This document shows, piece after piece, positions 8,449 to 13,317 of a stretch of 13,986 bases of DNA (positions are counted from its first letter, which is position 1; each line of letters begins with the position of its first letter). The translations under genes were made by a program, and so were the position numbers. Source of the DNA: a virus (taxonomy: Duplodnaviria; Heunggongvirae; Uroviricota; Caudoviricetes); the IMG/VR virus record IMGVR_UViG_2695420382_000006. One strand, written 5' to 3'. The notes beneath the pieces were generated by a model. That model was not told where the DNA came from. It ran no database searches and saw only the letters and a list, made by a program, of their open reading frames with translations.

Positions 8449-12149
<3,701 letters not shown>

Positions 12150-12175
<26 letters not shown>

Positions 12176-12695
12176 TCAGCAACCCCGGTATCAGTTCATC
12201 CAGCGCGGCTGCTTTGTTCATGGCTTTGATGATATCCCGTTTCAGGAAATCAACATGTCGGTTTTCCAGTTCCGGAAAACGCCGCTGCACCGACAGGGGG
12301 ATCCCGTCGAGAATACTGGCAATTTCACCTGCGATCCGCGACAGCACGAAAGTACAGAATGCGGTTTCCACCACTTCAGCGGAGTCTCTGGCATTTTTCA
12401 GCTCCTGTGCGTCGGCCTGCGCACGCGTAAGTCGATGGCGTTCGTACTCAATAGTCCCTGGCTGGAGATCTGTCTCGCTGGCCTGCCGCAGTTCTTCAAC
12501 TTCCCGGCGCAGCTTTTCGTTCTCAATTTCAGCATCCCTTTCGGCATACCATCTTATAACGGCGGCAGAGTCATAAAGCACCTCATTACCCTTGCCACCG
12601 CCTCGCAGAACGGGCATTCCCTGTTCCTGCCAGTTCTGAATGGTACGGATACTCGCACCGAAAATGTCAGCCAGCTGCTTTTTGTTGACTTCCAT
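12150..12695 (-). CDS. nu1: Terminase small subunit gpNu1 (cosB-binding)
   Basis: 181-aa ORF MEVNKKQLADIFGASIRTIQNWQEQGMPVLRGGGKGNEVLYDSAAVIRWYAERDAEIENEKLRREVEELRQ...; lies directly downstream of cosB. Confidence 0.92.
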
Positions 12696-12836: not shown

Positions 12837-12867
12837 AAACCGGAAAATTGTCATAAATAGCGAAAAC

Positions 12868-12890
12868 CCGCGCGCCTTCCGCCCCGTAAC
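12868..12890 (-). promoter_or_regulatory. cosN-like terminase nicking region, variant core GGGCGGAAGGCG instead of lambda GGGCGGCGACCT
   Basis: Reverse complement of 12861-12892 reads caggttacg-gggcggaaggcgcgcggg-ttttcg; both flanks match lambda cos while the central hexamer differs. Confidence 0.6.
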
Positions 12891-12915
12891 CTGTCGGATC
12901 GCCGGAAAGGACCCG

Positions 12916-12935
12916 CAAAATGATAATAATTATCA
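12916..12935. promoter_or_regulatory. Fur-box-like operator: perfect 7-1-7 palindrome TGATAATAATTATCA (12921-12935)
   Basis: 12921-12935 is a perfect inverted repeat TGATAAT-A-ATTATCA, matching the 7-1-7 reinterpretation of the Fur box; the extended 19-mer matches about 16/19 of GATAATGATAATCATTATC. Sits in the AT-rich intergenic region between cos and the plus-strand accessory ORF. Confidence 0.35.
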
Positions 12936-13083
12936 TCTACATGTCACAACGTGCATCTACGCCATCAAACCACGTCAAATAATCAATTATGACGCAGGTA
13001 TCGTATTAATTGATCTGCATCAACTTAACGTAAAAACAACTTCAGACAATACAAATCAGCGACACTGAATACAGGGCAACCTC

Positions 13084-13317
13084 ATGTCAACGAAGAACAG
13101 AACCCGCAGAACAACAACCCGCAACATCCGCTTTCCTAACCAAATGATTGAACAAATTAACATCGCTCTTGTTCAAAAAGGGTCCGGGAATTTCTCAGCC
13201 TGGGTCATTGAAGCCTGCCGCCGGAGACTGTGCTCAGAAAAAAGAGTTTCGCCTGAAGCAAACAAAGAAAAGAGTGACATTACTGAATTGCTCAGAAAAC
13301 AGGTTAGACCAGATTGA
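13084..13317 (+). CDS. Small hypothetical protein (77 aa), possible ribbon-helix-helix DNA-binding fold
   Basis: ORF MSTKNRTRRTTTRNIRFPNQMIEQINIALVQKGSGNFSAWVIEACRRRL...: a basic N-terminus, then a putative beta-strand (RNIRFP) and two short helices, the layout of RHH proteins. Weak SD (AGGG) 8 nt upstream of the ATG. Divergent from the late operon. Confidence 0.45.
   Translation: MSTKNRTRRTTTRNIRFPNQMIEQINIALVQKGSGNFSAWVIEACRRRLCSEKRVSPEANKEKSDITELLRKQVRPD

Follow-up and report, generated by a model that had tools for sequence, protein, structure and literature searches.

The palindrome next to cos in the 13,986-nt stretch of tailed-phage DNA analysed here (the window, meaning the whole stretch) is almost certainly a Fur-binding site homologous to the known nohB and nohA sites of E. 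coli. Our fuller explanation, which we consider probable, is that it represents a genuine high-affinity operator for the host Fur protein, the same element as the nohB/nohD and nohA boxes, embedded in a block of DNA that travels with cos, and that its output in this variant would be the occlusion of a promoter directed toward cos. The last component, taken by itself, rests on a predicted promoter and is offered tentatively. The Fur-binding site as such is already known, with a literature extending from 1994 to 2007, and phage lambda also carries one; the only part which may be new is the association with cosQ across the lambda-type phages, of which no description was found in the literature searched. 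Searches for ynfO, ydfO or nohD in connection with Fur, and for a Fur box in connection with terminase or prophage, likewise returned nothing relevant.

The palindrome and its surroundings

The window comprises a lambda-type late region, with Nu1 on the minus strand followed by A, W, B and the remaining head genes; the features around cos are compiled in Table 1.

Table 1. Features at and around the palindrome, in window coordinates
Feature	Position	Strand	Basis or score
Nu1, terminase small subunit, nohA/nohD homologue	12150..12695	-	Pfam Phage_Nu1, E = 2.4e-101
12-nt cohesive end (cosN core), GGGCGGAAGGCG	12873..12884	-	lambda alignment
cosQ, GGGTCCT, packaging-termination subsite	12908..12914	-	curated phage 434 cosQ feature
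Classical 19-bp Fur box: F1 CAAAAT, F2 GATAAT, A, R1 ATTATC	12916..12934	+	16/19
Predicted sigma-70-like promoter toward cos/Nu1: -35 GTGACA (12947-12942), 16-nt spacer, -10 TATCAT (12925-12920)	12920..12947	-	10/12
Fur-box dyad, exact 7-1-7	12921..12935		equals lambda bp 48466-48452
DUF3950 (YlcI/YnfO family) ORF, 77 aa, the gene earlier called RHH-like	13084..13317	+	Pfam PF13132, E = 2e-20
DUF1398 (YbcV/YdfO family) ORF, 141 aa	13360..13785	+	Pfam PF07166, E = 3.3e-43

The special feature of the site is an exact 7-1-7 inverted repeat, TGATAAT-A-ATTATCA (TGATAATAATTATCA), which equals its own reverse complement except for the central base and occurs only once in the window. The overlapping 19-mer CAAAATGATAATAATTATC agrees with the Fur consensus GATAATGATAATCATTATC more closely than any other stretch on either strand of the whole window; matches of at least 14/19 all fall on the site at 12916-12935, and the sole match elsewhere in the window (13/19) is located at 12058-12076. 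The reinterpretation of the Fur box as a 7-1-7 element is said to be that of Baichoo & Helmann 2002. With respect to the 7-1-7 pattern TGATAATNATTATCA, the window dyad scores 14/14, at a background of 0.30 expected occurrences per window with up to three mismatches (dinucleotide shuffles) and about 1.5e-5 per window for the exact dyad (base composition). An earlier note, made from the letters alone, had pointed to such an exact repeat, to agreement with the Fur consensus at about 16 of 19 positions, and to a placement between cos and the plus-strand ORFs, some 150 bp upstream of the latter. All three statements were borne out, the dyad ending 148 nt before the ATG at 13084.

On the cos side, the dyad begins 6 bp outside cosQ, the outermost defined cos subsite, with 233 nt separating its centre from the start codon of Nu1. 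For the definition of cosQ, Wieczorek & Feiss 2001 and Cue & Feiss 1993 are reportedly the sources. The phage 434 record has the curated cosQ 24-30 nt from the right end, and the right-end sequence is identical to that of the window. As defined in the Feiss-lab papers, cos consists of cosQ (7 bp), cosN and cosB, with nothing past cosQ. The cohesive end of the window is a rare variant of the lambda sequence GGGCGGCGACCT; within positions 7-12, a segment that tolerates variation according to the Feiss-lab literature, five of six bases differ. This variant was present in none of 105 IMG/VR cos loci, 102 of which had the lambda sequence; E. coli strain 582 (NZ_CP120568) is 100% identical to the window across 12860-13090.

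On the accessory side, the stretch of 148 nt that leads from the dyad to the DUF3950 start (12936-13083) hardly varies between the window, lambda, DLP12 and Qin. The DUF3950 ORF is a mosaic, near-identical to lambda up to about position 13225 and completely divergent thereafter; its C-terminus is of the 77-aa Qin ynfO type and differs from that of lambda. Two 'CII binding sites', assigned by consensus only and on the opposite strand, are annotated in the phage 434 record, one in the equivalent of 12936-13083 and the other inside the DUF3950 ORF.

Other readings of the local sequence were rejected at this level. For the IHF consensus WATCAANNNNTTR the best match at the dyad was only 7/9; seen from the dyad, the known cos IHF site I1 (in cosB) and the I2 segment (between cosN and cosB) are both beyond cosN (Feiss-lab papers). 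RNA structure was dismissed because the folding of both strands was unremarkable (z = -1.05 and -0.69) and Rfam gave no match anywhere in the window.

Identity with the nohB and nohA Fur sites of E. coli

The region was found in 3983 of 5426 complete E. coli genomes, mostly beside genes annotated as ylcI or ynfO, the names which the DUF3950 ORF bears in the E. coli genome annotation. In K-12, the spacer between nohD (formerly nohB) and ylcI of prophage DLP12 contains the 27-mer AAAATGATAATAATTATCATCTACATG, identical to the window, while the nohA-ynfO spacer of prophage Qin carries the dyad variant of lambda, with a central G. Both sites are published. The nohB site was assigned 25.3 bits, the third-highest value in a table of strong Fur clusters, and the nohA site, at position -233, 22.3 bits with a positive gel shift at 150 nM Fur (Chen 2007, PMC2189734). 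As cited in the entries of that paper for these two sites, the reference for nohB is the Fur titration work of Stojiljkovic 1994, and nohA had come out of the in vivo selection for Fur sites by Vassinova & Kozyrev 2000; in both approaches the recovered site was carried on a plasmid. In the same entries, the exact window variant, i.e., the DLP12 sequence, is referenced to the titration study only, and the gel shift concerns the Qin/lambda variant (PMC2189734). Furthermore, nohB is listed among the Fur-regulated genes in reviews.

The coordinates agree with this assignment. Addition of 1976 bp, the difference in the nohA start, to the nohA coordinate 1634624 of Chen 2007 leads exactly to the Qin dyad centre at 1636600, and for nohB, the coordinate given in Chen 2007 and the dyad centre in DLP12 are 777 bp apart. 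The published nohA site and the window share their distance from the start codon of the Nu1-type gene, -233. The difference of 777 bp we take to reflect the known shift in numbering between the two versions of the K-12 genome in that part of the chromosome. The earlier note had proposed the Fur-box identity, and on this point it can be upheld: the identical DLP12 sequence and the lambda variant in Qin are published Fur-binding sites, and the position weight matrix comparison it had in mind is provided by the published model, which places the identical K-12 sequence in the top ranks (PMC2189734). Its remark that no description had been established was wrong, both boxes being in the literature. 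Together with the site in CFT073 described below, three dyad variants each have some evidence for binding of Fur.

Conservation beside cosQ

A Fur-type dyad follows cosQ in lambda, 434, 21, phi80, N15, HK225, and the Stx1a and PhiR12 phages, with unrelated flanks beyond it (Table 2). In N15 both outer bases of the dyad are changed symmetrically, such that the dyad is kept. In phi80, N15 and the class-D phages the nearest gene converges on cos, so that phi80 and N15 have no divergent accessory gene to be regulated at this place.

Table 2. Sequence following GGACCC at the right end
Phage	Sequence after GGACCC
window / 434	GCAAAA-TGATAATAATTATCA
lambda	GTAAAG-TGATAATGATTATCA
phi80	GCAAA-TGATAATAATTATCA
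21 / CFT073	GAAAA-CGAGAATAATTATCA
N15	GTAAA-CGATAATAGTTATCG
HK225	GCAAA-CGATAATAATTATCA
Stx1a phage	GCGAAAA-TGATAATGGTTATCA
PhiR12_1	GAGAAAA-TGATAATGATTGTCA

A broader survey was based on IMG/VR cos loci sampled by patterns that exclude the dyad (182 loci, 73 haplotypes). Scored against the 7-1-7 pattern, 59 of the 73 haplotypes reached 11-14 of 14 and the remaining 14 did not exceed 8, with none at 9 or 10; beyond the motif, over 25 different flanks were counted. Anchored on the dyad, the consensus AAA-TGATAAT-R-ATTATCA-TTT corresponds to an extended Fur array (F-F-x-R-R hexamers); the profile was derived from the motif-positive haplotypes only and is therefore partly circular, the independent evidence being the bimodal distribution of scores. 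[quoted passage not shown] Since viable phages exist without it and its distance from cosQ varies, packaging does not depend on the dyad. The box is inherited with cosQ and not with the neighbouring accessory genes.

A scan with the cosQ-proximal 16-mer over one genome per species returned 120 loci, 7 of them in a real cos context and the rest by chance, which makes it no guide to taxonomic breadth; most of the seven look like contaminating lambda DNA. The assemblies in which lambda-type right ends turned up were those of Kitasatospora, Oceanobacillus and Veillonella, besides metagenome-assembled genomes of Chromatiales, Pseudomonadales and Nanosynbacter. Five of these six loci have the lambda variant and one the window type, and two begin exactly at the cohesive-end junction; they are probably lambda or lambdoid DNA contaminating the assemblies.

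Occupancy, promoters and possible targets

Fur ChIP-exo and fur-deletion expression data are available from the supplements of the nine-strain study of Gao et al. 2023 (PMC10164565). In CFT073 under iron-replete conditions, a ChIP-exo peak at 1424699-1424711 is positioned between the terminase operon and a divergent unit (PMC10164565). It falls on CGAGAATAATTATCA, the 21-type variant of the dyad, with the offsets from the lambda-type cos and the terminase start unchanged. Deletion of fur in this strain derepressed genes on both sides (log2 +2.33, +2.95 and +2.13, i.e., 4- to 8-fold): on the accessory side C_RS07340 and C_RS26755, by 5- to 8-fold, and among the terminase-side genes the fifth alone, the small-subunit gene not being listed as derepressed (PMC10164565). 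The CFT073 divergent unit may represent genuinely iron-regulated prophage cargo. Past the dyad, the 21/CFT073-type flank encodes a small secreted Cys-rich ORF, with a TonB-family lipoprotein nearby that adjoins iss/bor (CFT073 NC_004431, 1423000-1427500; phage 21).

In the same study, no Fur ChIP-exo peak was reported at DLP12 or Qin in MG1655 and W3110, or at lambda DE3 in BL21(DE3). Multi-mapping of reads was considered as the cause of the absent K-12 peaks and can be at best a partial one, the copies differing at several bases near the dyad. Upon deletion of fur, the transcripts of nohD, nohA, ydfO and ybcV were unchanged in MG1655, and in W3110 they were lower, not higher (PMC10164565). 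No derepression of ynfO, ydfO, ylcI or ybcV was seen in the K-12 fur-deletion RNA-seq data. The decrease in W3110 extends over large parts of DLP12 and Qin, with appY among the genes affected, and therefore is probably an indirect, strain-specific effect on prophage regions rather than local control by Fur; the log2 values were -4.1 for appY, -5.3 for ybcW, -3.7 for ybcV, -5.1 for ynfO and -2.0 for ydfO, without such a change in MG1655. In vivo evidence is mixed, with a top-ranked site that gave no ChIP-exo peak in K-12 or BL21(DE3). The earlier note had envisaged a Fur peak over the site in lysogens and fur-dependent transcription beside it. Both exist in CFT073, at the 21-type variant; for MG1655, W3110 and BL21(DE3) the peak did not materialize, and the response of transcription was absent in MG1655 and downward in W3110.

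One further peak deserves comment. A ChIP-seq summit at 1634625 in MG1655, in the K-12 numbering of that study, is 1 bp off the Qin dyad centre, the antibody being directed against FNR (Myers et al. 2013, PMC3688515). This summit appears in a table of ten operons classed as Fur-repressed and described as known to be bound by Fur (PMC3688515). The Qin peak is not cleanly assignable to either Fur or FNR, because the antibody is anti-FNR and the Qin variant matches the FNR consensus TTGATNNNNATCAA at 8 of 10 positions. Anti-FNR summits were also obtained on the nine other loci described as Fur-bound, which would reflect either sites shared by Fur and FNR or a signal coming from Fur. That the dyad is an FNR site, or one shared by FNR and Fur, is very improbable: the near-coincident summit and the 8/10 match speak for it, but the window variant reaches only 7/10, the ten loci lack FNR-dependent expression, and the phylogenetic consensus has the 7-1-7 spacing of Fur and not the 5-4-5 spacing of FNR.

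In the vicinity of the site a single good promoter match was obtained, the predicted sigma-70-like promoter on the minus strand, and the Fur dyad covers its spacer and -10 element. For the promoter as predicted, this arrangement is the classical geometry of Fur repression. Both the nohA and nohB Fur clusters have been noted to overlap a predicted promoter of more than 4 bits (Chen 2007, PMC2189734). The minus-strand promoter is limited to the 434/DLP12-type variant; the -10 of lambda fails the scan, other lineages have weak matches, and in the haplotype profile the columns of the would-be cos-directed -35 are nearly information-free. On the plus strand, no promoter of at least 9/12 was detected in 12880-13095, where the best candidates reach 8/12 and have poor -35 elements; the sole one of these able to serve the DUF3950 ORF sits 20 nt past the box. 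The promoter annotation found under the match to HK629 was discarded, as it belongs to bor and is distant from the site.

On these grounds the preferred mechanism may be sketched as follows. Iron-loaded Fur dimers would bind the dyad and its A/T-rich flanks, as shown elsewhere for the same or a variant sequence. In the 434/DLP12-type variant, the box would overlie the spacer and the -10 element of a sigma-70 promoter close to the consensus and reading across cosQ-cosN-cosB into Nu1 and A, and bound Fur would occlude this promoter. Such occlusion may be what the literature describes as repression of nohA and nohB by Fur.

The target favoured in the earlier note was a different one, namely the accessory operon on the plus strand, divergent and consisting of DUF3950 followed by DUF1398, which would become iron-controlled prophage cargo. 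We regard this as unlikely for the window. In its favour are the divergent orientation of the operon relative to the late genes, with the box upstream of its first ATG, the derepressed CFT073 genes beside a homologous box under a ChIP-exo peak, and the changes of ynfO, ydfO, ylcI and ybcV in W3110 after deletion of fur. Against it, MG1655 does not respond, the direction in W3110 is wrong for repression, the cargo genes of CFT073 are unrelated to those of the window, and the plus-strand promoter candidate is poor and lies past the box. Moreover, phi80, N15, HK225, Stx1a, PhiR12 and class-D phages retain the box without the DUF3950 gene. The proposal has little to support it here, derepression on the accessory side being confined to the 21/CFT073-type lineage, and any control of the DUF3950/DUF1398 genes by Fur in the present lineage is at most secondary. 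The same distribution bears on the fallback that the product of the neighbouring gene, the DUF3950 (RHH-like) protein, uses the palindrome as its operator. The idea is suggested by the location of the palindrome, which precedes a gene for a small putative DNA-binding protein, but it is ruled out by the many phages (21 among them, in addition to those just named) that have the dyad with no DUF3950 gene beside it; in addition, the gene is 148 nt off with no promoter between, and binding of Fur already accounts for the dyad. We give it hardly any credence. A chance palindrome devoid of function, the other fallback, has nothing in its favour beyond the AT-rich sequence, and its probability is negligible in view of the expectation of about 1.5e-5 per window, the conservation across lineages with bimodal scores, and the experimental binding of Fur.

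A further question is whether the dyad is primarily a cis element of cos, i.e., an extension of cosQ/R4 acting in termination, right-end protection or injection, with Fur as an architectural co-factor or an incidental ligand. In support of this, cosQ is the only invariant neighbour, 5-7 nt away in the named lineages and followed by more than 25 classes of flanks, and no conserved promoter architecture surrounds the dyad. In the phi80 record, 55 bp including the dyad are labelled 'cosQ; aka R4 region'. The standard cos test fragments (lambda 48446-182) contain the dyad, so that its contribution was not separated in the literature examined. On the other hand, IdasGreatGrand and 4A7 do without it, as do 14 of the 73 haplotypes, its spacing to cosQ is variable, the Feiss-lab definition of cos stops at cosQ, and the conserved bases of the dyad are exactly those of the Fur consensus. 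Judged from sequence and natural phages, the dyad lies outside the curated 7-bp cosQ and does not qualify as a cos subsite. We consider the chance of such a primary cos function to be slim. A related view, doubtful at present but worth stating, sees in the Fur box an old element kept by selection at the right chromosome end in lambda-type cos phages, through which Fur and iron would act on a function tied to cos and not on accessory genes; candidates for the function would be packaging termination, protection or handling of the right end, and gating of transcription into the terminase operon.

To return to the Fur operator as the preferred reading, the site ranks among the strongest predicted Fur sites of E. 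coli, yet no target has found general agreement, and its in vivo occupancy varies from strain to strain. Co-inheritance with cosQ, independent of the neighbouring genes, hints at a role at the chromosome end or at the entry to the terminase operon, and a cos-linked role, if true, would tie the iron status of the host to late functions of the phage.

Comparison with known systems

The closest relative is the nohB (nohD) box of DLP12, with the identical 27-mer between a Nu1 homologue and ylcI. DLP12 is a decayed prophage with a truncated late operon, whereas the window has an apparently intact lambda-type head/terminase module and a variant cohesive end. The nohA box of Qin, which corresponds to lambda 48452-48466, occupies the homologous place, at -233 relative to the start codon of the Nu1-type gene. 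It differs in the central base (G in place of A in the window) and in the base preceding the dyad (again G in place of A). Through these changes, Qin and lambda have TATCAC as the cos-directed -10 where the window has TATCAT, and no longer give the promoter match. The CFT073 prophage site, with its 21-type right end, lies at the same distances from cosQ and the terminase start codon; its dyad CGAGAATAATTATCA is degenerate (12/14), and the accessory genes, coding for a secreted Cys-rich protein and a TonB-family lipoprotein, are unrelated.

In comparison with the canonical 19-bp Fur boxes of iron-uptake genes, the architecture is the same, and the window variant also has the overlap with a -10 element and spacer, here of a predicted promoter. 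In contrast to the canonical boxes, it is not located beside an iron-acquisition gene, and its putative regulatory output is inconsistent between strains. Finally, the lambda cosQ/R4 region resembles the present case in that the dyad is immediately adjacent and co-inherited, the phi80 record lumping both; cosQ itself is a 7-bp element which ends 6 bp before the dyad, and phages having cosQ without the dyad exist.
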